64,000 nucleotides of DNA from a bacterium (GTDB lineage Bacteria > Armatimonadota > UBA5829). How positions within the stretch are numbered: the first letter of the stretch is position 1; the number at the start of each line of letters is the position of its first letter. A model generated the notes under the pieces. It made no database searches. It worked only from the letters and a program-made list of their open reading frames with translations, and was not told the origin of the DNA. Position numbers and translations under genes: made by a program. Positions 23,921 through 50,810 of this stretch are shown here, in pieces. The stretch spans positions 27,109 through 91,108 of the forward strand of contig JAJFTD010000027.1 in NCBI GenBank assembly GCA_021373255.1. Reading direction: 5' to 3'.

Positions 23921-26349
23921 TGAGCTATGGTCACTTTTCCGATGACGGTAAAGAATATATAGTTACCCGTCCTGATACCCCTCGGCCTTGGATCAACTAT
24001 CTCACCAATGGCCGGTATTGTGCGTTGTGTTCGCAGACGGGTGGGGGGCACTCGTTCTTTGAAACTTCCGGTTACAACCGTGTGACCCGCGAGTATCCGC
24101 AGTTAGTCGTTCTACAGGACAGGCCCGGGCGCTATGTTTTTCTTCGAGATGCCGAAACGGGCGATTACTGGAGCGCCAACTGGCAGCCCGTATGCGATAA
24201 ATTCGATTCATTCGAGGCGCATCATGGTATCGGCTACACATCGATCATGTCATCATCTCACGGCATCGACAGTTGTATTACCTATTATGTACCTCCTAGG
24301 GATGATGTCGAGGTTTGGATGATCAGCCTGAAGAACTCTTCAGATAAGCCGCGAGAGATTCAGGCATTTCCTTATGTGAAGTGGGACCTTGCCAACTTTG
24401 CCTACAGCGCGGTGGAGTCCAGCTTCGCGTCGCTCTTTAACGAGGTGAGCGTCGAGGATCACACCATATTTGTCAGCACTCGCTTTTGGAATATCACCTC
24501 GGGCACGACCGGCAACCCGAACACGCGGTGGGACAAGTGGGCATTTATGACATCCACTGCACCTATTGAGGCTTACGATTGTCTGGACGAAGAGTTTATG
24601 GGGATGTACCGCAGCCTGGCAAACCCAATTGCTATCGAGGAAGGCCAACTCCGAAACAGTTGTGGCAACGGCCGGGAAATTATGGCCTCGTTCCAGCACA
24701 GGTTCAGTCTACAGCCTGGCGAGGAAGTTAAGTTCATAATCCTGGTGGGTGTCGCTTACCGTATGGAAGATGCATTTCATCTTCGCGACCGATACGACGA
24801 CTGGGGTGAAGCCGAGAGGGGTCTTGTGGAACTTGACAGGCATTGGGACAGCTACCTCAGCCGCACTCAGGTTGCAACACCCAGCCGTGAGTTTGACCTC
24901 AGCGTGAACACGTGGAACAAGTATCAGGCGTGGGTGACCTCGCGCTGGAGCCGGATGGATTCATATTACGTCGCCGGTAGCTCGATCATCGGGTTCAGAG
25001 ACAGTTGGCAGGACATGCTTGCCATACTCCCGAACGACGTCGAATGGGCCCGGGAGCGGGTGGTTTATATGCTCGAGCACCAGTTCCCTGACGGAAGCTG
25101 CCTGCACAACTGGGACCCGCTTACCAACATCGGCGTTAAAACCGGCCATTCAGACGACCCTATGTGGCTGGTGCTGGGTGTATTGGAGTATCTCAAAGAA
25201 TCCGGTGATCTGATGTTTCTTGATGAAGCCATACGCTATTATGACGGCGGTTCAGAGACTGTCCGGCAGCATATTGTTCGGGCATTGGATTACACACTCG
25301 CCCACATGAGTGACCGTGGTCTGCCTTTGATCATGGCTGCGGACTGGAATGATGGGCTGGATTATGTGGGCAGGCAGGGTCGTGGTGAGAGCAGCATGGT
25401 TGCTGGTCACCTGGCATGGATGCTTCGTGAAGTAGCTTCCTTGCTTTGGTTCGTGGGCAGTGACGCGCTCGCACAGAAATACGTGGAGGCGCGTGACCAC
25501 CTCGTTCGCAACATAAATCAATATCTTTGGGATGGTGAGTGGTATATCCGAGGCACCCGTGATGATGGTGAAGCATTCGGCTCGTCTCGAAATATAGAGG
25601 GGAGAATCTATATAAACAGCCAATCGTGGATGGTTCTCGGTAGCGCAGCGTCCCGAAATCGTGCGATCCGGTGCATGGACTCTGTAAAGAAGCATCTGGA
25701 TACTCCTTACGGCCCGGCACTTTTTCTGCCCGCTTACCGTGAGCCCGATCCAAAACTCGGTATCATAACCCGCTTTGCGCCCGGCACTAAGGAGAACGGC
25801 ACTATATTCTGCCATCCGACAGCGTGGGTGATTATGGCGGAATGTATACTCGGCCGTGGAGATCAGGCGTGGGAGTATTGGAAGCAGGTATCGTTTGTAC
25901 ACAGGGGGGCTGAGCCTGATGTATATAAGGTCGAACCCTATGTGTATTGTGAATATGTTCACGGGCCCGATTCTGGATACTTCGGCCAGGGCGAGTTCAG
26001 TTGGATGACCGGTACCGCTGCATGGATGTGGAGAGTGTGTATGGATTGGATATTGGGCGTGCGCGCGGAGTTGAGAGGACTGCTGATAGATCCATGCATC
26101 CCATCGGAATGGGACGGGTTCAAGGTTAACCGTCATTTCAGAAAGTGCAATTATGAGATAGAGGTTGAGAACCCTGACCACGTATCACAGGGTGTACGCG
26201 CAATCTTTGTTGACGGAGAGTGTCACACTTCTCACTTACTGCCCCTGTTTCCCCCTGGTGAAACCCATCAGGTAAAAGTAGTAATGGGCGAGCCAACTGG
26301 TGGGGTTGAGGTAGTCGCGGAACTAACTGTGGAGCGGATTAGTACATGA
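23920..26349 (+). CDS. GH94-like glycoside phosphorylase (cellobiose/cellodextrin/chitobiose phosphorylase family)
   Basis: 809 aa. The N-terminus MSYGHFSDDGKEYIVTRPDTPRPWINYLTN and an (alpha/alpha)6 catalytic region match the length and start of cellobiose-phosphorylase-type enzymes. Family assignment is by recollection. Confidence 0.6.
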   Translation: MSYGHFSDDGKEYIVTRPDTPRPWINYLTNGRYCALCSQTGGGHSFFETSGYNRVTREYPQLVVLQDRPGRYVFLRDAETGDYWSANWQPVCDKFDSFEAHHGIGYTSIMSSSHGIDSCITYYVPPRDDVEVWMISLKNSSDKPREIQAFPYVKWDLANFAYSAVESSFASLFNEVSVEDHTIFVSTRFWNITSGTTGNPNTRWDKWAFMTSTAPIEAYDCLDEEFMGMYRSLANPIAIEEGQLRNSCGNGREIMASFQHRFSLQPGEEVKFIILVGVAYRMEDAFHLRDRYDDWGEAERGLVELDRHWDSYLSRTQVATPSREFDLSVNTWNKYQAWVTSRWSRMDSYYVAGSSIIGFRDSWQDMLAILPNDVEWARERVVYMLEHQFPDGSCLHNWDPLTNIGVKTGHSDDPMWLVLGVLEYLKESGDLMFLDEAIRYYDGGSETVRQHIVRALDYTLAHMSDRGLPLIMAADWNDGLDYVGRQGRGESSMVAGHLAWMLREVASLLWFVGSDALAQKYVEARDHLVRNINQYLWDGEWYIRGTRDDGEAFGSSRNIEGRIYINSQSWMVLGSAASRNRAIRCMDSVKKHLDTPYGPALFLPAYREPDPKLGIITRFAPGTKENGTIFCHPTAWVIMAECILGRGDQAWEYWKQVSFVHRGAEPDVYKVEPYVYCEYVHGPDSGYFGQGEFSWMTGTAAWMWRVCMDWILGVRAELRGLLIDPCIPSEWDGFKVNRHFRKCNYEIEVENPDHVSQGVRAIFVDGECHTSHLLPLFPPGETHQVKVVMGEPTGGVEVVAELTVERIST

Positions 26350-26373
26350 TAAGCATTTGCAGCTAACCTGTAG

Positions 26374-26760
26374 GGGCGAAGCACTTGCCCTTCGATTGCC
26401 GTATTTGCTGTAATCTTAAACGCAAGTGCTTCGCCCGCATGTGGCGGGTTTGCTATGCTGCGGGAACTTACCTGGTGGAGAATTCACGCATATGCTGTCA
26501 GCGTCGTTCCCGCAGGATATTAAACCATCAAGCTATCCGAGGGCGAACGCACGAATAAACGTTTGGTGATGGCATTCAAATAGATGACCTGCTTGATGGG
26601 AGGCGATCTCCGAATCGCCTCCCCAAAGCCAATGCCGGATTTCCGAATCCGGCTTCTTCGGCACAGGTTTTGGGGTTCGGAGACCCCATTCTTGGCCTTG
26701 AGGTGGCGATTCGGAGATCGCCACCTATCAGGGTTTCTGCAGGATATCAAACCATCAGGC
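26374..26760. repeat. Highly structured intergenic block made of several nested elements. A 15-bp inverted repeat runs 26374-26388 / 26422-26436. Direct repeats GCAGGATAT(T/C)AAACCATCA(A/G)GC sit at 26512-26533 and 26739-26760. Between them are four related hairpins: P1 26599-26622, P2 26634-26653, P2b 26672-26687, P3 26702-26725.
   Basis: P1 is GGAGGCGATCTCCGAATCGCCTCC. P3 is GGTGGCGATTCGGAGATCGCCACC, which is the reverse-complement core of P1 with a compensatory change. P2 is GCCGGATTTCCGAATCCGGC. P2b is GGGGTTCGGAGACCCC. All were read directly from the sequence. Confidence 0.55.
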
Positions 26761-26786
26761 CATCCAGCCATCAGACCCATAACGTC

Positions 26787-26815
26787 TTGTCAATAGGCTT
26801 CCACCCTGATAGAAT
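26787..26815 (+). promoter_or_regulatory. hsp20 promoter TTGTCA-17-TAGAAT
   Basis: TTGTCA at 26787-26792 and TAGAAT at 26810-26815. Confidence 0.45.
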
Positions 26816-26829
26816 GATGCTCTAGTAGG

Positions 26830-26848
26830 GGCACACATAATATGTGCC
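26830..26848. promoter_or_regulatory. 19-bp near-perfect palindrome GGCACACATAATATGTGCC between the -10 element and the RBS of hsp20 (candidate repressor operator)
   Basis: 18 of 19 positions are self-complementary. It lies about 15 nt downstream of the -10 and 9 nt upstream of the AAGGTGA RBS. Confidence 0.45.
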
Positions 26849-26868
26849 TGGGAAATAAGGTGACTTGC

Positions 26869-27324
26869 ATGATGTTCAAATCTTATGACGAGATGCTTGA
26901 GGAGTTGGAGCGAGAGATGCGTCGTGTGTCTGATGATATGCTGCTCCATATGTTTCGGATATCGAGCACCTCGGGTGATGTGTGGTCGCCCAGAGTCGAT
27001 GTATATGAGACTGCCGATGCTGTGGTTGTGAAAGTATGTGCCGCAGGGCTGGAGCCAGGCCAGATAGAACTGACCCTATCTGGAGACGGCAGGTTTCTCA
27101 CGCTGCGAGGCATGAGAGTCGAGCAGGATGAGGACAAGGGGCAGAGGATTCGCTATCATCAGTTGGAGGTATACTACGGGCCATTCGAACGCGTGGTGTC
27201 CCTGCCAAACGAGATTCCTCTTGAGCGCGACAGCCTTACCGCGAATTACAAAGACGGATTTCTGAAGGTAGTGCTGCCGAAGATTCAGCAGCCGACACCT
27301 ACGAAGATAGACATAGAAGAATAG
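26869..27324 (+). CDS. Hsp20/alpha-crystallin family small heat-shock protein
   Basis: Alpha-crystallin domain (VDVYETADAVVVKVCAAGLEPGQIELTLSGDGRFLTLRGMR...YGPFERVVSLPNEIPLERDSLTANYKDGFLKVVLPK). RBS AAGGTGA. The start is the ATG at 26869 or 26872. Confidence 0.9.
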   Translation: MMFKSYDEMLEELEREMRRVSDDMLLHMFRISSTSGDVWSPRVDVYETADAVVVKVCAAGLEPGQIELTLSGDGRFLTLRGMRVEQDEDKGQRIRYHQLEVYYGPFERVVSLPNEIPLERDSLTANYKDGFLKVVLPKIQQPTPTKIDIEE

Positions 27325-27458
27325 ACCCGGACATGATGCCGGGATTTGGCGCGGTAACTAACTCGGAGCATCGCATCGGATTATACTCTTGGACCGGTGT
27401 GACTTTGCGCCCAGGCACTGTGTTGCCCTGCTCCGAGGTGAAGTGATGGAGGTTATTT

Positions 27459-29918
27459 GTGGATACAAAACTTGAGGAGCACAATGGTGAGGCTATTCTC
27501 CTCGAAGGTGAGGGGCTTGGGGATAGGAATATAGCAATCCCTGATGAGCTGAGTCTGCTCCCTATTAAAGATACTGTACTGTTCCCGATGGTGGTGATGC
27601 CGCTCATTGTCTCACGTGAGAGTTCGATGAAGCTGGTTGACGACGCCGTCGTAAGTGATACACGTATAATCGCACTGTCCACGCTTAAAGACCCAAATGT
27701 GGAAGCCCCGCAGATATCCGACATTTACCCAGTCGGTGTCGCGGCGGCAATTCATACGATGCTTCGGCTCCCTGAGCACCAGAGGCTGATCGTTCAGGGC
27801 CTCAAGCGAATTAGGATAGTCGAGCTTATACAATCCGAGCCATATATCCGTGTGAGGGTAGAAGAGATTCCCGACGTTCGCGACTGGACTGATGACGAGG
27901 ATGTCGAGATAGAGGCGCTGCGGCGCAACGTCGGTCAGGCGTTTCAGAAAGTGGTCACGCTGTCGCAGAATCTGCCCGATGAGCTGCAGAATATTGTCAC
28001 CAGTATCGCCAGACCAGGTGTGCTGGCTGACACCATTGCTCTGCATCTGCCCATAGAAATAGCCGAGAAACAGGATTTGCTGGAGACTGAGGGGACACGC
28101 GCGCGCCTGCGCAAGTTGCTCACCATCCTCCTTCGCGAAGTCGAAGTCCTGGAACTGGGCAGCAAGATCCAATCGCAGGTCCATTCAGAGATGGGCAAAA
28201 TGCAGAGGGAGTATTATCTTCGCGAGCAAATGAAAGCCATCCAACGCGAGCTTGGTGAGGGTGATGAACGAACTGCGGAAGTGGAAGAACTGCGCGGCAA
28301 GATCACTGAGTCCAAGATGCCCGAAGAGGCTGAGAAAGAGGCTTTGCGAGAACTGGACCGGCTGAGCCACATGTCGCCCGCTGCGCCTGAATACACAGTC
28401 GCCAGGACGTATATAGACTGGCTCATAAGCCTGCCTTGGGAAACGTACACCATAGACAATCTGGACATCCCCGTGGTCCACAGAATCCTGGATGATGACC
28501 ATTTCGGGCTCGATAAAGTCAAAGACAGGATTTTAGAATACCTATCTGTTCGGAAGTTCAAAGCTGAGGGGGAGATGCGTCACCCGATCCTTTGTTTTGC
28601 AGGACCTCCTGGAGTTGGTAAGACATCACTGGGCAAGTCTATCGCCAGTGCATTGGGGCGGAAGTTTGTGAGGATGAGTCTTGGTGGAATCCGCGACGAA
28701 GCCGAGATCAGAGGCCACAGGCGGACCTACATAGGCGCGCTTCCGGGCCAGATCATCCAGAGTATCAGGCGCTCCGGTTCCCACAACCCCGTGTTTATGC
28801 TCGATGAGATCGACAAGGTCGGTGCGGACTTCCGTGGTGATCCGTCTTCGGCACTGCTTGAGGTGTTGGACCCGGAACAGAACTCGACATTCAGGGATCA
28901 CTATCTTGAGGTGACATTCGATCTTTCCAAGGTCTTATTCATAACGACGGCTAACGTGCTCGACACCATTCTGCCGCCGTTGAGAGACCGAATGGAGATA
29001 CTTGAGATCGCCGGTTATACTGAAGAGGAAAAGCTGGAGATCGCCAAGCGCCACCTGATTCCCAAGCAGCTCAATGAGCACGGCCTTATGAAGACCAAGC
29101 ACATCACGTTTACCAAAGACGGCATCGTTGAGCTGATTCGTGGCTACACGCGTGAGGCCGGAGTGCGAAACCTTGAGCGACAGATCGCTTCGATCTGCCG
29201 TAAGGCCGCGCGCGAGTTTGCTGAGGGGCGTGAGAAACCGGTGAAGGCCAATGCCGCGCAGGTGCATGCATATCTTGGTGTACCCAGATATACTTATGAA
29301 GAGCTGGCGGATAGGACCGACGAGCCGGGTGTTGCCGTAGGGTTGGCGTGGACTCCCACGGGAGGCGATGTGCTGTTTATTGAAGCTACCAGAATGGAGG
29401 GTGGCAAGCAGCTTACCATTACCGGTCAACTTGGCGACGTAATGAAAGAATCTGCCCAAGCGGCTCTCAGTTATGTGCGAAGCCATGCGGATGAACTCGG
29501 CATTGCTGCCGATTTCTACAAGTCATCTGACCTGCATCTGCATGTGCCCGCCGGTGCGATACCCAAGGATGGCCCGTCAGCTGGTGTTACGATGGCCACC
29601 GCGCTTGCATCGTTATTGAGTGGCCGGAAAGTGAAGCCGAGGTTGGCGATGACCGGCGAAATCACTCTTCGCGGGAAAGTATTGCCTGTGGGAGGTCTCA
29701 AAGAAAAGATTCTGGCTGCGCGCAGGGCAGGGGTCGAAACAGTGATCGTGCCCAAGGAAAACCGTAAGGATGTGGAAGAAGATGTGCCGCAGGATGTTCG
29801 GAAAGATTTGAAGATCATCTATGTGGACGATGTCTCTCAGGTTCTCTCAGAAGCTCTTGAACCAAATGGAGCCAGGAAGCATTCCACTCGAAAACATAAG
29901 GCTGCAGCCAGTGTTTGA
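27459..29918 (+). CDS. lon: ATP-dependent Lon protease (LonA)
   Basis: Lon N-domain (LSLLPIKDTVLFPMVVMPLIVSRE). AAA+ Walker A GPPGVGKTSLGKSIA and Walker B VFMLDEID. Protease domain with DGPSAGVTMATALASL and the catalytic Ser/Lys region. The start is a GTG with RBS GATGGAGG. Confidence 0.95.
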   Translation: MDTKLEEHNGEAILLEGEGLGDRNIAIPDELSLLPIKDTVLFPMVVMPLIVSRESSMKLVDDAVVSDTRIIALSTLKDPNVEAPQISDIYPVGVAAAIHTMLRLPEHQRLIVQGLKRIRIVELIQSEPYIRVRVEEIPDVRDWTDDEDVEIEALRRNVGQAFQKVVTLSQNLPDELQNIVTSIARPGVLADTIALHLPIEIAEKQDLLETEGTRARLRKLLTILLREVEVLELGSKIQSQVHSEMGKMQREYYLREQMKAIQRELGEGDERTAEVEELRGKITESKMPEEAEKEALRELDRLSHMSPAAPEYTVARTYIDWLISLPWETYTIDNLDIPVVHRILDDDHFGLDKVKDRILEYLSVRKFKAEGEMRHPILCFAGPPGVGKTSLGKSIASALGRKFVRMSLGGIRDEAEIRGHRRTYIGALPGQIIQSIRRSGSHNPVFMLDEIDKVGADFRGDPSSALLEVLDPEQNSTFRDHYLEVTFDLSKVLFITTANVLDTILPPLRDRMEILEIAGYTEEEKLEIAKRHLIPKQLNEHGLMKTKHITFTKDGIVELIRGYTREAGVRNLERQIASICRKAAREFAEGREKPVKANAAQVHAYLGVPRYTYEELADRTDEPGVAVGLAWTPTGGDVLFIEATRMEGGKQLTITGQLGDVMKESAQAALSYVRSHADELGIAADFYKSSDLHLHVPAGAIPKDGPSAGVTMATALASLLSGRKVKPRLAMTGEITLRGKVLPVGGLKEKILAARRAGVETVIVPKENRKDVEEDVPQDVRKDLKIIYVDDVSQVLSEALEPNGARKHSTRKHKAAASV

Positions 29919-31487: not shown

Positions 31488-31518
31488 CGACGACGAAATG
31501 CCATTAGGGAGTCTACCC

Positions 31519-33873
31519 ATGACGGCCTTCACTTCATCCAAAACAGTGATAGTTGCGGGTGTCGATCTGAGGATTGTTCGAGTCAACGATAGACTTGTTG
31601 ATGACCCACAATCCAAGGATACTCACGTCTACTCTCTAAAGGGCGTGTCTTTGCTCGATTATATTACTGAACTAGATAGACATGAAGTGGAGCAGATATG
31701 TGCACGCATTCTTGCAGGCGAAATGTTTCCCGGAGGCGCCAGAGTTTGCAGGAGAATTGTTGATAGTCCTGCGTGCTCCTCGGGAAAAGCCGTGATATTG
31801 TTAGGCCCGCATACTGATAGTGAAGGCGCTGTAGATGGAGTCATATTTGCACGATTTTGCCTTGATGAACGCGTTGAGACACCAATGCATGGCCCCGATC
31901 CGGAAACACTATATGATTATGTAGTCAACAACTCCAACGATATGGTGTTTATACTGGACAGCGATGGTACTTTGGAATTTGTGAATCGTCGTGCAGAAGA
32001 ACATCGAGGAGTGCCGTATAGTGATATTGTTGGCCGGCACTTTAGTGAGATATGCTACCCGGACGATATATCCGCCCTTCAACGGATACTGGATAACATT
32101 CAGATTTCGCGAGAGCCTGTGCATAACCTCCGCTTTCGCGTGGTGCTTCCCGATGGTTCGATCAGGCGATTAGTGGCCAATGGCGGGACGGTGAGTGTTA
32201 ATGGTAACGAGAAGTACCTGTGCATTGCCAGAGATATTACTGAGTATATCGAGCTTCGCGAAAAGCTGACGGTCCGCAATAAGGCGCTGGCCGCACTTAC
32301 TGATGTAATCATTTCCCTATCAGATGCAGGACATTCGGATAAAGCGCTGCGACTCGGTTTGAGCAAGATTTTAGATCTATTGGGTTTGCAGCAGGGCGCG
32401 GTCCTCCTTAGCAACACGCGTGGAGTGATGAAACTGAACACACACTGTGGATTCAATGAAATGGCGCTCAGTAATCCTGCGAAAAGGTATTTAATTGAGC
32501 TGGCAAGCTTATGTGCGTCGACAGGAGAGATGATCTTTGTTGATGACACGCTGTGTAATGATCATGGAACCCCGGAACTCCGTCAGGAAGCGTATCGCTT
32601 TGGTATTAGGGCATCGGTTTATGTGCCTTTGAAGCGTGGCGAGACTGTGAATGCGGTCCTTGCTCTGGGGGTGCCGCCATCCACTGAGCTGAGCGTTGAG
32701 CAGATGGAGTTTGTGAGGCTCGCGGTGGGTGTGCTTGGGCCTGCTGTCGAAAATGCTCGGCTCCACGTTGACCTCACCCATCAAGTTCAAGACTTGGCGA
32801 TGCTGGATGAGCTCATGAAATCCGTTAACGCGAGAAAAGACGTTCGCAGCATACTGGAGTCTTGCGTTAAGCAATTATCCGATGTGATAGAGGATGGTGT
32901 CGCAGTTATTGTGCTGTTCGGGGTTGATGGTAGTGTAGATGTGTTCCAATACCCGAAAGTCTGTCCGATGGCACACATTGACCTTGCAAGGCTGTCACTT
33001 GGGGTGATGGAACGCTTTATGGCAATGGCCAGCCCGCACATTGTTGACGACTACTCTGAGATGCCTATGAACCATCCTTTAAGTGATCAAATGGTTGCCA
33101 ATGGTTCAGGTGTGGTTTTGCCGCTCAAGTGTCTTGAAGGGCTGCGTGGGACACTTATGGTCTGGTCACCCGAAACCGGCAGGTTCGGCAAGCGGGAATC
33201 TCAGGTTTTGGAGTCGGTGGCGGAGCATGTGGTAATCGCGTTAACCAACGCTCGGCTTCATGAAGCTGAGAGAGCTCGGTCTCTGGAGATGGAAGCGATC
33301 GCGAAAGAGGCCCATCATCGCATCAAAAATAATCTCCAAGCCATTTTAGGCCTGCTTGCAATTGGTGAGATGGAAGGAGAATCAGCAATTGCAAGATGCA
33401 GGCGCCAGTTGAAGGCGGTTGCAGCAGTGCATGATATGCTGGTAGTAAAAGAATGCGGATCAGCAGATATATCATTAAGCGAATGCCTTGCAAAGGTGGC
33501 AGAACAGGCGCTTCTGGCTACGGGGTGGGGGAACACTGTGGAACTGACTGTCGAAAGTGACGGCCTAACCATTCGTCCTGACGCTGCAACAGCCGTAGGT
33601 ATTATCGTAAATGAGTTTGTATGCAATGCAGTGGAGCACGGGCTAGGTGAATGTGTTGTGAATGGTAAAATAGCTATTCGCGCATATCGTGAGGGCTCCA
33701 AGATATTGATAGAGGTTGTGGACAACGGAGTTGGATTCCCGCCAGGATTTGAAGTGCCGGAGAGGGCGGACAGCGGACTTGGGCTCGCAGCTTCACTGGC
33801 AACGTACGGACTTGGTGGTCGCCTGGAGCTTGAACGTGTCGACGATAAGACAATCGCCCGCATTACGTTTTAG
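31519..33873 (+). CDS. Multi-sensor signal-transduction histidine kinase (PAS plus two GAF domains, HisKA_2/HWE-type kinase core)
   Basis: PAS region (VNNSNDMVFILDSDGTLEFVNRRAEEH...). GAF-like regions. H-box EAHHRIKNNLQAIL (HisKA_2 type). HATPase_c with G-boxes (VVDNGVGFP...SGLGL). RBS AGGGAG sits 7 nt before the ATG at 31519. Confidence 0.85.
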   Translation: MTAFTSSKTVIVAGVDLRIVRVNDRLVDDPQSKDTHVYSLKGVSLLDYITELDRHEVEQICARILAGEMFPGGARVCRRIVDSPACSSGKAVILLGPHTDSEGAVDGVIFARFCLDERVETPMHGPDPETLYDYVVNNSNDMVFILDSDGTLEFVNRRAEEHRGVPYSDIVGRHFSEICYPDDISALQRILDNIQISREPVHNLRFRVVLPDGSIRRLVANGGTVSVNGNEKYLCIARDITEYIELREKLTVRNKALAALTDVIISLSDAGHSDKALRLGLSKILDLLGLQQGAVLLSNTRGVMKLNTHCGFNEMALSNPAKRYLIELASLCASTGEMIFVDDTLCNDHGTPELRQEAYRFGIRASVYVPLKRGETVNAVLALGVPPSTELSVEQMEFVRLAVGVLGPAVENARLHVDLTHQVQDLAMLDELMKSVNARKDVRSILESCVKQLSDVIEDGVAVIVLFGVDGSVDVFQYPKVCPMAHIDLARLSLGVMERFMAMASPHIVDDYSEMPMNHPLSDQMVANGSGVVLPLKCLEGLRGTLMVWSPETGRFGKRESQVLESVAEHVVIALTNARLHEAERARSLEMEAIAKEAHHRIKNNLQAILGLLAIGEMEGESAIARCRRQLKAVAAVHDMLVVKECGSADISLSECLAKVAEQALLATGWGNTVELTVESDGLTIRPDAATAVGIIVNEFVCNAVEHGLGECVVNGKIAIRAYREGSKILIEVVDNGVGFPPGFEVPERADSGLGLAASLATYGLGGRLELERVDDKTIARITF

Positions 33874-34039: not shown

Positions 34040-34654
34040 TTGGGTTACAGAGTCCTAGTAGTAGAAGACGATCCGGTAGTGGCAGTTGGTATTGTGTCGA
34101 TTCTCCAGGAGGCTGGTCATGAAGTTACTGGTGTGGCGAGAAGTGGCGAAGAGGCTTTGGAGATATCGGCGAGCAATTCTCCAGAGATAGCGCTGGTTGA
34201 TGTGAAGCTGCCTGGTATGGACGGCATCAAGACTACGCGGAAGTTGGTCGAGCAGGGCAGCCCGGCGGTCATTATGCTGACTGCATATGCCGACAAGAAT
34301 TTGGTCGAGGGTGCGGCTCAGGCAGGAGCGTTTACTTATCTGCTCAAACCTGCTGATAAAGAGACGTTACTCGCCAATCTGGAGATTGCTACAGCCAGGT
34401 GGTCGGAGTTTGCTGAACTGCGAAAGGAAGCAGAAGACACCCGGACGGCGTTAGAGACGAGAAAGCTGTCGGAACGTGCAAAGCACGTAATGATGGAGCG
34501 GTTGTCCTGGAGTGAAGAGACCGCATTTGCACACATGCGCCATAAGTGCAGGAATCAGAACAAGACAATGCATCAGGTGGCTGAAGAGATTATCGCTGCT
34601 GATGAAGCCTTTATGGGGGTTATAGACAAAGACCCTCCAAAGAAAGATAAATAG
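34040..34654 (+). CDS. ANTAR-domain response regulator (REC + ANTAR, AmiR/NasT-type antiterminator)
   Basis: REC domain with the phospho-acceptor motif (VLVVEDD...IALVDVKLPGMDG). The C-terminal ANTAR motif is LETRKLSERAKHVMMERLSWSEETAFAHMRHKCRNQNKTMHQVAEEII. TTG start with RBS AGGGAG. Confidence 0.85.
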   Translation: MGYRVLVVEDDPVVAVGIVSILQEAGHEVTGVARSGEEALEISASNSPEIALVDVKLPGMDGIKTTRKLVEQGSPAVIMLTAYADKNLVEGAAQAGAFTYLLKPADKETLLANLEIATARWSEFAELRKEAEDTRTALETRKLSERAKHVMMERLSWSEETAFAHMRHKCRNQNKTMHQVAEEIIAADEAFMGVIDKDPPKKDK

Positions 34655-48275: not shown

Positions 48276-50810
48276 TTACTCAACCATTATTGAGGCAGTA
48301 CTAGCCAGCATTATCGGCGGCGTAATTCGGAGTGAAGCCCATCCATTCGAGTTCGCCGCCGCTGTGCGTACGCCATTGATGCGCACTGCCCGCGCGTTGG
48401 TCTTTAGCTTAATGCTGCCGACTGGACCTCGATACTTGATGTTAGGTCCTCGCTCTTCGAATGACATTTCTATGCATTCTACTGCGTCTGGAGAATCAAT
48501 GAGCAGGTTACCATCCCACATTACCCACGACCCGTGGCATAGAGTTATCGTTACCGGCTCGCCATTGATCAATCGCACTGCGGCTAATTTCGCATCACTC
48601 TGTAAACGCTGGTTTGAGTTATCACCTGCGTCTTGCAGGTATACATAATCTTCTATTTCTTCGACACAGCATCTCAACATGCTGCCTTGCAGGGAGACAT
48701 CAATCTTTTTCTCATCTCGTGCTGGTGCCAGCACCGCGAGGAAACTTGCCTGCTTGCCACGTTGATGACATCGGACCAGCGGCACTGTGCGGTTCATTGT
48801 TTCGGCAAAGCATTCTCCAATTGACACTGCGCCTCCGCCATCACAATGCCACATAGTAAATGATAGCACCCCATTGCCGGACTTCCAGTCGATTCTGCAC
48901 GATTCGTCTAGCCTCAGCGCCATCTCCGTTTTTACAGAATGTAAATCCGGCATGACTGCATCTGCCTGACTATACTTGCCGATTATCTCCGGTTTCCCTT
49001 CGCATCGCATCAGCCAGTCATAATCATGATCCTGCTCGCTGGATAATTGATCCCTTACGATACAAGCGTCACCAAGTAATATAATTGTACGTGTATGAGT
49101 CACTCCAGGATAACAATCAACCGCAGCGCACTCCACAGCCTGCAGGAACGAATTCCCGCAATGTCCAACCAATGCACAGTTCTCTGTGGGCTCCTGTGAG
49201 TTTCCATCCACCAGTACTGTATTATGGCACGCCGTGCTTCTGCACCAATCGGATAATTTCTGCCCTTGCTCAGGTGCTCCATAGTCGGGCACCATCACTT
49301 CGTCGTTAGCATACAGTGTGAACCCGAGTTTGCCCAGATGGTTGCTTGTGTGGCAGGAGCCATAGTCTATGGTTACCGCCGCGCCTCCGAGGCTCTTCAG
49401 GCAGCACACCCCGATATCACTGAAGTTCCTGCTCTTGAACATTGGTGTCGCAATTCTGCCTGGCAGGTCTCTGCCAAACAGAAATGCATAGAAACCAGCC
49501 CGCATGAACCTAACTGAGTGCTCCATATGGTCTTCATTAGCAGGTGATTCTCTATATTTGTAGCCCTTTTTCAGGACCCAGGCAAACAGCATCTCGTTCC
49601 AGCGTCTGTATGCGACCTCGTATAAATCCAGTGGCAGGAATGAATCGAAACAGCCATCATCAATAATCGGCAACCGGAACGATGGATACATATAATGCAG
49701 CGGTGAAACGAACATGCATTTCAACGATTTGCCTGTTGGATGCTCCGGCGAGTATACATCGATTCCGCAGCGGTACAACCCCTCGGCAAAATGGATAAGA
49801 GCTTCAATTGCTTTGAAGTGAGACCCATTTGCTGATTCTGCCCACAGGCCAGCAGGGCTGATATGATTGCTGATCCATTCGCGAAACAGCGCGAGTGCCT
49901 TATGGATCAGTTGTGCGTCCTTTAGCGTCAGCCCAATCACGCCTGCTGCAGCTAAATGCCATGCCGCAGGTATGCCATCAGCATCAAGTTGGGCTAAAGA
50001 TATCCCAATCGGCTTGAGTAACTGCTGCTCCACGCTCGCTCGTTCTTCTTCAGTCAGGCTTCGGGCATAATACACGAGGTCATAAGCCTGAGCCAAGGCA
50101 ATCGCCCATTCAGCTTCGGCTTGCGAGTTGTGAAGTATTAATGTGGAGAGGGGATCATTACTCGATTCAGAATACAATCGAGCATACGCAACTAATATCT
50201 CTGCAGCTTTATCCGCATATGCACGCTCTTTTTCTATACCATAGGTCAAAGCCAGCGTCAGAGCCGCACCGGCTAGCCGCATGTGCTGCATATGCCGAAC
50301 AGCGCCATCGTAAACTTCGCCGGAAACAGTCCTTGAGCACACCGAGCAGGTATAAGATGCAGATATTTGAAGATCATCAGGTGGGCACAGAGGGGCTCCG
50401 CACTCGCACACGAACATTCCGGCGTCACCGCCGCGTTCTGGGATTACAATCTCCCTTTCAAGCCACTGGTTAGCAACAGAAAGTATACCGGCGCTGACAT
50501 ACAAGCCGTGTTTCATATTAGCGGGTTGAAGATATAAGGCCCGCTTCCATCCATCCTTGGTTAGCCCGCGGCGCAGAACGCTTAGTTCTCTCTCATTCAC
50601 GAGCACGAACGGCCTCGGACTAGACTTCACAGCCCGTTCCAGTTGTGCAGGGTTGGCAGAACTATCTGCGGTAAGCACCAGCGGCGAGGGTTTAGTTGCC
50701 GCCCTCGTGTTCCACTCGATCATGTAATCTTGCTCCAAACTTGCAATCACCAGTTCCCGCTTTTGTTCACCAGAGACAGATATAAGAAAGACAAACCATG
50801 TACGTGCCAA
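48276..50810 (-). CDS. Heparinase II/III-like / alginate-lyase-like polysaccharide lyase family protein
   Basis: 844 aa. The N-terminal (alpha/alpha) toroid region and C-terminal beta-sandwich resemble heparinase II/III-family (PL12/PL17/PL21-like) proteins. Family assignment is by eye only. Confidence 0.5.
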   Translation of the reverse strand: MARTWFVFLISVSGEQKRELVIASLEQDYMIEWNTRAATKPSPLVLTADSSANPAQLERAVKSSPRPFVLVNERELSVLRRGLTKDGWKRALYLQPANMKHGLYVSAGILSVANQWLEREIVIPERGGDAGMFVCECGAPLCPPDDLQISASYTCSVCSRTVSGEVYDGAVRHMQHMRLAGAALTLALTYGIEKERAYADKAAEILVAYARLYSESSNDPLSTLILHNSQAEAEWAIALAQAYDLVYYARSLTEEERASVEQQLLKPIGISLAQLDADGIPAAWHLAAAGVIGLTLKDAQLIHKALALFREWISNHISPAGLWAESANGSHFKAIEALIHFAEGLYRCGIDVYSPEHPTGKSLKCMFVSPLHYMYPSFRLPIIDDGCFDSFLPLDLYEVAYRRWNEMLFAWVLKKGYKYRESPANEDHMEHSVRFMRAGFYAFLFGRDLPGRIATPMFKSRNFSDIGVCCLKSLGGAAVTIDYGSCHTSNHLGKLGFTLYANDEVMVPDYGAPEQGQKLSDWCRSTACHNTVLVDGNSQEPTENCALVGHCGNSFLQAVECAAVDCYPGVTHTRTIILLGDACIVRDQLSSEQDHDYDWLMRCEGKPEIIGKYSQADAVMPDLHSVKTEMALRLDESCRIDWKSGNGVLSFTMWHCDGGGAVSIGECFAETMNRTVPLVRCHQRGKQASFLAVLAPARDEKKIDVSLQGSMLRCCVEEIEDYVYLQDAGDNSNQRLQSDAKLAAVRLINGEPVTITLCHGSWVMWDGNLLIDSPDAVECIEMSFEERGPNIKYRGPVGSIKLKTNARAVRINGVRTAAANSNGWASLRITPPIMLASTASIMVE

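Follow-up and report, generated by a model that had tools for sequence, protein, structure and literature searches.

In the hsp20-lon operon of an uncultured Armatimonadota bacterium, the palindrome that lies between promoter and ribosome-binding site probably reflects, at the DNA level, a stem-loop formed by the 5' untranslated leader of the operon's mRNA, where it would serve as a constitutive stabilizer or insulator of the transcript. The hairpin is conserved and covaries among related leaders, and it has neither operator-like nor thermometer-like properties. Promoter geometry predicts that it is transcribed, and analogy with known leader hairpins suggests its stabilizing or insulating role. 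The element is most likely a small, clade-restricted leader hairpin of an ordinary and familiar kind. Here, the window refers to the whole stretch of DNA that was analyzed (64 kb), and positions are counted from its first nucleotide.

The hsp20-lon Operon and Its Promoter

The Hsp20 protein encoded in the window has 209 homologs, and the best and the named ones are Hsp20 proteins of Armatimonadota. The gene is followed by lon (Table 1), which by its Pfam domain content encodes a full-length protease, and lon is found directly 3' of hsp20 in 89 fetched loci. The adjacency of hsp20 and lon, which was pointed out in a preliminary description of this DNA, is confirmed, and judged from these comparisons hsp20-lon is a genuine and widely conserved gene pair. 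No dnaK, groEL, clpB, grpE, hrcA, or hspR gene was detected in the 64-kb window or in the Armatimonadota flanks by ORF annotation and tblastn. Rfam models at gathering thresholds identified only four tRNAs in the whole window, and at permissive thresholds no leader match was obtained in 26300-27600. An N-terminal extension of Hsp20 from the ATG at 26842, which lies within the 3' arm of the stem, was rejected, as this codon has no Shine-Dalgarno (SD) sequence and is not kept in relatives.

Table 1. Features of the hsp20-lon promoter, leader and genes in the window.
Feature	Position	Strand	Remarks
-35 hexamer TTGTCA	26787..26792	+	Consensus scan; promoter scores 10/12, 17-nt spacer
Extended -10 element TGATAGAAT	26807..26815	+	TG at 26807-26808, TAGAAT at 26810-26815
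Whole hsp20 leader, match to covariance model R1	26816..26871	+	55.8 bits, E = 6e-10; sole match in the 64-kb window
RNA stem-loop (predicted)	26829..26849	+	7 bp GGGCACA/UGUGCCU, loop CAUAAUA; contains the 19-nt palindrome
19-nt palindrome GGCACACATAATATGTGCC	26830-26848	+	14 nt past the -10 element; ends 8 nt before the SD sequence
SD sequence AAGGTGA	26857..26863	+	7 nt past the stem, 5 nt before ATG 26869; read from the sequence
hsp20 CDS	26869..27324	+	151 aa, alpha-crystallin domain, Pfam PF00011 E = 8.5e-9
lon (ATP-dependent protease La), second gene of the operon	27459..29918	+	Pfam LON_substr_bdg + AAA + Lon_lid + Lon_C; start codon uncertain

To judge from its sequence, the hsp20-lon promoter is a strong sigma-70-type promoter with an extended -10 element. 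Based on promoter geometry, transcription is predicted to start near 26822 (+/-2), ~7 nt past the -10 element, which would place the palindrome at about +8 to +27 and leave an unpaired 5' tail of about 5-7 nt before the hairpin in the window, and of 0-7 nt across the clade of close relatives defined below, with the full 7 nt in the window. In orthologs, the promoter takes the form of cTTGTAAA or cTTGyCAA followed after ~15 nt by TGnTAGAAT or TGnTACAAT, and dozens of orthologous loci keep the equivalent of the -35 element ahead of hsp20. The strict TTGTAAA form was matched in 22 of 154 loci, once in each, and 21 of these 22 matches lie upstream of hsp20; the single match elsewhere belongs to an Aquificota locus (L055) and has the opposite, minus-strand orientation. 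The AAGGTG of the SD sequence is invariant in the alignment of the close relatives. Two other promoter assignments were rejected by inspection. A sigma-54 promoter would need GG and GC elements 10 nt apart, a spacing that the GG and GC of GGCAC...TGC have neither in the palindrome nor in GGCACTGTGTTGCC, which lies upstream of lon; a second promoter with the conserved TAATAT as its -10 element would have no usable -35 element in the window, and its spacing would differ from one relative to the next.

The Palindrome as a DNA Site

The palindrome is present where the preliminary description had placed it, between the TAGAAT -10 hexamer and the ribosome-binding site, and the reported GCAC-N9-GTGC spacing was found again, in a single occurrence. 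The symmetry, given there as 18/19, has to be corrected: 8 of the 9 arm pairs match around a central A, with one C/A mismatch, and as RNA only 7 pairs can form, closing a 7-nt loop. Palindromes of the same class (9-nt arms, at least 8 matches, 1-nt gap) number 4 in the window vs. 8.1 +/- 2.0 in shuffles, and those with gaps of 0-5 nt number 56 vs. 46 +/- 8 expected. The palindrome as such is not more than chance, and its significance derives only from where it lies and from the comparison with relatives.

It had been proposed that the palindrome is the operator of a lineage-specific repressor, that is, a double-stranded DNA site at which a dimeric heat-shock repressor would block RNA polymerase just past the start site. 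Repressor operators, CIRCE included, typically occupy positions such as the predicted +8 to +27, the arms form a 9-1-9 inverted repeat in which one pair is mismatched, and the downstream gene is a heat-shock gene. However, the comparison with relatives makes this proposal very unlikely. The left half-site is conserved in no ortholog, including those that keep the promoter and the SD sequence, and the palindrome sequence itself is kept in none of the orthologous loci. Even when 3 mismatches were allowed, the palindrome had no further copy in the 64-kb window, including the region upstream of lon, or in 154 related loci (~0.9 Mb); the window and the Armatimonadota flanks contain no chaperone gene other than hsp20 at which such a copy might lie. 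The spacing between the arms ranges from 6 to about 25 nt; in one relative (L067/L075) an insertion of ~270 nt lies inside the loop with both arms kept, so that the arms of L067 are ~290 nt apart. A dimeric DNA-binding protein requires a fixed spacing of its half-sites, and an RNA stem does not; the variable loop and the insertion thus speak for a stem-loop in transcribed RNA and not for an operator, in which the spacing would be fixed. Moreover, the central symmetric bases in the window (ATAATAT) descend from a GUARUAU motif (GTAATAT in the DNA) whose context in the relatives is non-palindromic, which makes the extended DNA symmetry in the window incidental. Finally, there is no HrcA, MerR/HspR, or CtsR-type gene among the annotated or scanned ORFs of the 64-kb window.

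Consensus scans also agreed with the earlier view that the site is neither CIRCE, HAIR, nor a CtsR box, none of which had a match at hsp20. The CtsR box is a direct repeat, RGTCAAANANRGTCAAA, and the RheA operator is an inverted repeat, TGTCATC-N5-GATGACA; with these consensus sequences no match was found near hsp20, and the counts were at or below chance. CIRCE, the operator of HrcA, consists of TTAGCACTC-N9-GAGTGCTAA, with arms of 9 bp and a spacer of exactly 9 bp (PMC7464140). The window palindrome resembles it in being an inverted repeat with GCAC...GTGC close to the point where transcription of a heat-shock operon begins, but these tetranucleotides are 13 nt apart in CIRCE and 9 nt apart in the palindrome, and CIRCE is constant in sequence and spacing across phyla whereas the window element is variable even within a clade. 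No CIRCE match was present in the window at up to 3 mismatches, and GCACTC-N9-GAGTGC was absent from the 154 loci. HAIR, the operator of HspR, is CTTGAGT-N7-ACTCAAG and controls hsp and lon genes in other bacteria (PMC7464140). It is absent from the hsp20 promoter and leader of the window, where the only matches (2-3 mismatches), at 50013 and 55432, are at chance level; unlike HAIR-bearing promoters, the window's clade retains only a CTTGTCA or CTTGTAA -35 element. Six more distant Armatimonadota orthologs (L022, L025, L107, L111, L115, and L116) do carry a HAIR-like TTGACA-N7-ACTCAAG over the hsp20 promoter, and the leaders of these orthologs are short and unstructured.

Conservation of the Stem in Related Leaders

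The orthologous hsp20 loci compared here include 65 from species-representative genomes and 80 from metagenomes, plus contigs encoding the closest proteins. The near clade is composed of the window, L066/L068, L003, L071, L069, L073, L001/L072, L155, and L083. Its leaders are alignable, and a homologous stem in the same register as the palindrome is found in 9 relatives; the 5' and 3' arms are as follows: GGGCACA and UGUGCCU in the window, AGUGGCG and CGCCGCU in L083, GCGGCG and UGCCGC in L071, GCGGCA and UGCCGU in L003, GCGGU and GCCGC in L073 and L069, GGCGGU and GCCGCC in L066, and GCGCGAA and UUCGCGC in L001. The loop measures 6 nt in L083, 7 nt in the window, 14-17 nt in L003, L073, and L001, and ~25 nt in L071 and L066. 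At the four-fold degenerate sites of hsp20, the identity between the window and the near clade is only 23-40%, i.e., these sites are saturated; the GGC/GCC core of the stem, the promoter, and the SD sequence, all of which are retained, are therefore under selection.

Covariation was assessed with a covariance model (R1) that was built from the near-clade leaders and then used to align natural sequences; one alignment (A3) had hand-trimmed loops and another (A6) was fitted to R1. In the R1-aligned natural sequences, 92.6% of the pairing cells are paired, vs. 27-72% when the partners were slid. Both sides have changed in 4 of the 6 stem pairs, and none of 500 shuffles reaches the observed covariation score. 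Since the core pairs are conserved in sequence, the covariation rests on about 4 compensated cells, in a homologous-stem clade that is small (about 10 leaders). Over ~0.5 Mb scanned, matches to R1 were confined to hsp20 leaders, and the window and the 154 loci likewise gave no copy of the leader motif elsewhere. Based on these alignments, the stem is a clade-specific RNA feature under selection.

In the wider family, the tendency toward a hairpin just ahead of the SD sequence is modest. In 27 leaders, the hairpin ending 1-10 nt before the SD sequence exceeded its shuffled counterparts in strength (mean z -0.63, Fisher p = 0.018), and in all 51 orthologous leaders folding was slightly better than in shuffled sequence (mean z -0.37), with no difference from the regions upstream of the promoter (p = 0.26). 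Several orthologs have short, unstructured leaders, and many have no significant hairpin. A leader hairpin universal to all orthologs was rejected as weakly supported by these mean z values.

The element might have no function of its own: the leader evolves fast and is rich in G+C, the inverted repeat could have arisen in it by chance, and residual homology would then account for the apparent conservation. Palindromes of this quality are no commoner than expected, G+C-rich leaders fold well at random, many orthologs have no significant hairpin, and the covariation events are few. Such a history is nevertheless improbable: although the four-fold sites of hsp20 have saturated, 9-10 leaders share an invariant stem core in one register, 92.6% of cells are paired vs. 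27-72% in the slid controls, and both arms have outlasted a 270-nt insertion in the loop.

Part of the element is also conserved in sequence, namely the 3' side of the loop (GUARUAU) and the 3' arm (GUGCC), as seen in the window (ATAATATGTGCC), L071 (GTAATATCGTGCC), L003 (GCAATACTGTGCC), L073 (GTAGTATTTGTGCC), and L155 (GCAGTATTTGTGCC). This conservation, despite saturated synonymous sites, could point to a specific recognition element, either one in which an RNA-binding protein or a small RNA reads GUARUAU-(N)-GUGCC, or one in which the non-template TAATAT acts as a sigma-70-dependent promoter-proximal pause signal. The HAIR-like operator of the distant orthologs is missing in the window's clade, and control may have moved. 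We regard this explanation as unlikely, because no candidate binding protein or small RNA is known, and leaders beyond the small clade do not have the motif. The pause signal fits poorly, as the distance of the motif from the promoter shifts with loop length from about +17 to about +40.

RNA Folding and Temperature

RNA thermometers pair with the SD sequence and/or the start codon at low temperature (PMC2887971, PMC4914106). The preliminary description had offered a short, RNA thermometer-like hairpin as a second possibility, and of this the hairpin has held up, as an RNA feature under selection, while the thermometer has not. The local hairpin folds with a dG of -9.6 kcal/mol and z = -2.29, a value that is suggestive of RNA structure but not decisive. 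Its computed dG rises from -9.6 at 37 C to -6.2 at 55 C and -2.5 kcal/mol at 75 C, and at 75 C its pairs are still predicted with a probability >0.9. The hairpin leaves both the SD sequence and the start codon outside. No match to the Rfam ROSE, fourU, or Hsp17 families was obtained in the leader up to E = 10, and by inspection no U(U/C)GCU anti-SD sequence is present 5' of the SD sequence. RNAalifold on 8 near-clade sequences gave a consensus of -4.6 kcal/mol with 0 compensated pairs and no conserved helix masking the SD sequence or the AUG. Therefore, with the SD sequence and AUG unmasked, the stem predicted to be folded at 75 C, and no conserved masking helix, the hairpin is not itself a thermometer.

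The hairpin could still be the stable first module of a two-part thermometer, scaffolding a heat-labile helix in which the SD sequence and AUG pair with hsp20 codons 4-10, so that translation rises with temperature. The minimum free energy structure of the window does pair the AGGU of the SD sequence with GCUU and the AUG-containing CUUGCAUGA with UCUUAUGACGAG; this helix is weak and rich in A-U and G-U pairs, and the predicted probability that the AUG is unpaired increases from 0.05 at 37 C to 0.23 at 55 C. The leaders of small heat-shock proteins are a classical home of thermometers, and ibpA of Pseudomonas combines a stable hairpin I with a labile hairpin II (PMC3669281). However, the leader and the early coding region together fold no better than shuffles (z = -0.93), the masking helix is missing from the RNAalifold consensus of the near clade, and the accessibility of the SD sequence and AUG is patternless in 27 orthologs, the AUG being 0.02 to 0.96 unpaired. 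The lack of the anti-SD sequence and of any match to the known thermometer families likewise counts against it, and a two-part thermometer is unlikely. A thermometer helix formed with the coding region was rejected as not conserved, in view of the RNAalifold result and the erratic accessibility.

A cluster of hairpins with the loops UCGGAG and YUCCGA was also observed upstream. It was considered as an ANTAR dual-hexaloop motif and rejected, for these loops do not have the required A at position 1 (PMC3369931).

The Leader Stem-Loop as a Probable Stabilizer or Insulator

The stem-loop that we favor, as a constitutive element of the mRNA, would work as follows. Transcription would begin ~7 nt past the extended -10 element, as promoter geometry suggests, and the RNA would fold into about 5-7 unpaired nucleotides and a 7-bp G+C-rich hairpin, with the SD sequence following 7 nt on. 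Within the clade, the GGC/GCC core and the position of the hairpin are retained, the outer pairs change with compensation, and the loop is free in length and sequence. The hairpin may shield the heat-shock transcript against decay that depends on its 5' end; alternatively or additionally, it may hold the leader in a fixed fold in which the SD sequence is kept available. As the hairpin is thermostable and leaves the SD sequence and AUG free, its action at the mRNA level would be constitutive. The stem-loop structure, rather than the loop sequence, is the object of selection, as in 5'-UTR stem-loops that stabilize or insulate an mRNA.

One of the closest known analogs is found in another small heat-shock gene. 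Hairpin I of the Pseudomonas ibpA leader is G+C-rich and conserved and does not melt, and it was proposed to aid folding or to protect and stabilize the mRNA (PMC3669281). The window element is likewise a G+C-rich, 5'-proximal hairpin in the leader of a small heat-shock protein gene, upstream of an SD sequence that it does not include. The two hairpins are unrelated in sequence, and the window leader gave no Rfam ROSE match; the thermosensing hairpin II of ibpA, with its U(U/C)GCU anti-SD sequence, is missing from the window leader and has no conserved substitute there.

Stem-loops that stabilize mRNA from the 5' end are known from the ompA and papA leaders of Escherichia coli and the aprE leader of Bacillus subtilis (PMC3997798). 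The window leader is similar to them in having a stable 5' stem-loop followed by a strong ribosome-binding site, with the structure conserved, and a constitutive action would match. The ompA, papA, and aprE hairpins lie within a few nucleotides of the 5' end, whereas the window hairpin follows its predicted unpaired tail; unlike them, the window element is also sequence-conserved in part of its loop and in its 3' arm. Two observations count against parts of this picture. The predicted single-stranded tail of 5-7 nt is longer than a classical 5'-terminal stabilizer tolerates, which counts against a stabilizer, and the conserved GUARUAU and GUGCC sequences are not needed for structure alone, which counts against a purely structural role.

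Heat-Shock Control in Armatimonadota

A literature search returned nothing on heat-shock control in Armatimonadota. The comparison made here shows that one conserved hsp20-lon operon carries at least two different arrangements of control elements among Armatimonadota: a HAIR-like operator that overlaps the promoter in some lineages, and a strong extended -10 promoter with a leader stem-loop under selection in others. It is conceivable, if improbable, that the HspR/HAIR operator of the sister clades was lost here and that control moved to the leader, in which case the stem and GUARUAU-GUGCC would form the site of a putative post-transcriptional heat-shock regulator, either a protein or a small RNA. 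If true, this would be a cis-regulatory RNA of a new type, acting on an operon that encodes a chaperone and a protease, and the stem would be a new RNA element if it is regulatory rather than merely protective. The analysis also corrects an appealing false lead, in that a palindrome just past a heat-shock promoter need not be an operator.

The hsp20 promoter and HAIR-like sites

The promoter pattern TTGTAAA-N12-17-TGnTAnAAT was matched in 22 loci, once per locus, and 21 of these matches precede hsp20; the exception, in an Aquificota locus (L055), is on the minus strand. The -35 upstream of hsp20 is regularly cTTGTAAA or cTTGyCAA, not TTGACA, and it could be either a relic of the left arm of HAIR, the HspR operator (CTTGAGT-N7-ACTCAAG), or the mark of a particular sigma factor. 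At six more distant Armatimonadota orthologues (50-57% amino acid identity), a HAIR-like inverted repeat, TTGACA-N7-ACTCAAG, overlaps the hsp20 promoter at its -35 and spacer, which implies HspR-type control of hsp20 in these six loci. No such repeat was found at hsp20 in the window's clade.

Coordinates of features in the window and in orthologous hsp20 loci (L-numbers)
Feature	Locus	Position
hsp20 promoter	window	26787-26815
HAIR-like repeat	L022	5927-5946
HAIR-like repeat	L025	5930-5949
HAIR-like repeat	L107	444-463
HAIR-like repeat	L111	1425-1444
HAIR-like repeat	L115	257-276
HAIR-like repeat	L116	1338-1357
Hairpin element	window	26592-26732
Its sub-hairpins	window	26598-26623, 26634-26653, 26671-26688, 26701-26726
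Related cluster	L095	51-267
Related cluster	L083	178-243
Single related hairpin	L027	5669-5696
33-nt direct repeat	window	26506-26538, 26733-26765
Leader-stem insertion	L067 / L075	about 150-440
Comparison for insertion	L068	352-417
hsp20-lon pair	window	26869-29918
hsp20-lon spacer	window	27325-27458
Spacer hairpin CCCGGACATGATGCCGGG	window	27326-27343
Spacer sequence GGCACTGTGTTGCC	window	27414-27427
Palindrome GAAGATGCATTTCATCTTC	window	24766-24784
Sensor kinase gene	window	31498-33873
Receiver-ANTAR regulator gene	window	34040-34654

Repeats and hairpins upstream of the promoter

The 140-nt element situated ~55 nt 5' of the hsp20 -35 is predicted to fold as one long hairpin of very high stability (-88.7 kcal/mol, z = -7.9). 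Within it are four small hairpins, two per strand, with the loops YUCCGA / UCGGAG; hairpin 4 corresponds to hairpin 1 in reverse complement, apart from a compensated A/T change. Related clusters are present 5' of hsp20 in L095, with six hairpins, and, in degenerate form, in L083; a single hairpin of this type was detected in L027, and no further occurrence was found in the rest of the 64-kb window. Two copies of a 33-nt direct repeat (consensus GTTyCyGCAGGATATyAAACCATCArGCyATCC, 85% identical) flank the element asymmetrically, short CCATCAG-like repeats extend as far as the -35, and similar A/C-rich short repeats lie 5' of hsp20 in L106, L019, L091 and L116. The element could be REP/MITE-like or a structured RNA, or it could serve the upstream GH94 gene as a terminator or insulator. 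Identity with the ANTAR dual-hexaloop target (PMC3369931) was rejected, because loop position 1 is not A.

Within the GH94 coding sequence itself, another 8/9-arm palindrome was observed, which is probably due to chance, since palindromes of this class occur at or below the expected count.

Insertion in the leader-stem loop

In one metagenomic relative (L067 / L075), the loop of the leader stem, the RNA stem-loop of the hsp20 leader, carries a ~270-nt insertion between GGCGG and CCGCC. A small mobile element is one possible identity for this insertion.

The hsp20-lon gene pair

The hsp20-lon spacer of the window is ~70-120 nt longer than those of its nearest relatives, opens with a hairpin without a T-run, and matches neither R1, the covariance model of near-clade leaders, nor the 19-nt leader palindrome. 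Genes for a sensor kinase of the PAS/GAF HisKA_2 type and for a response regulator of the receiver-ANTAR (RNA-binding antiterminator) type are located 4-7 kb 3' of lon. The pair itself, seen in the window and in 89 fetched loci, is kept across the Armatimonadota orthologues; loci with the labels Abditibacteriota, Acidobacteriota and Polarisedimenticolia (L030, L031, L034) have it as well. Such wide conservation suggests that the small heat-shock protein and Lon may form a functional partnership, beyond mere adjacency of their genes.
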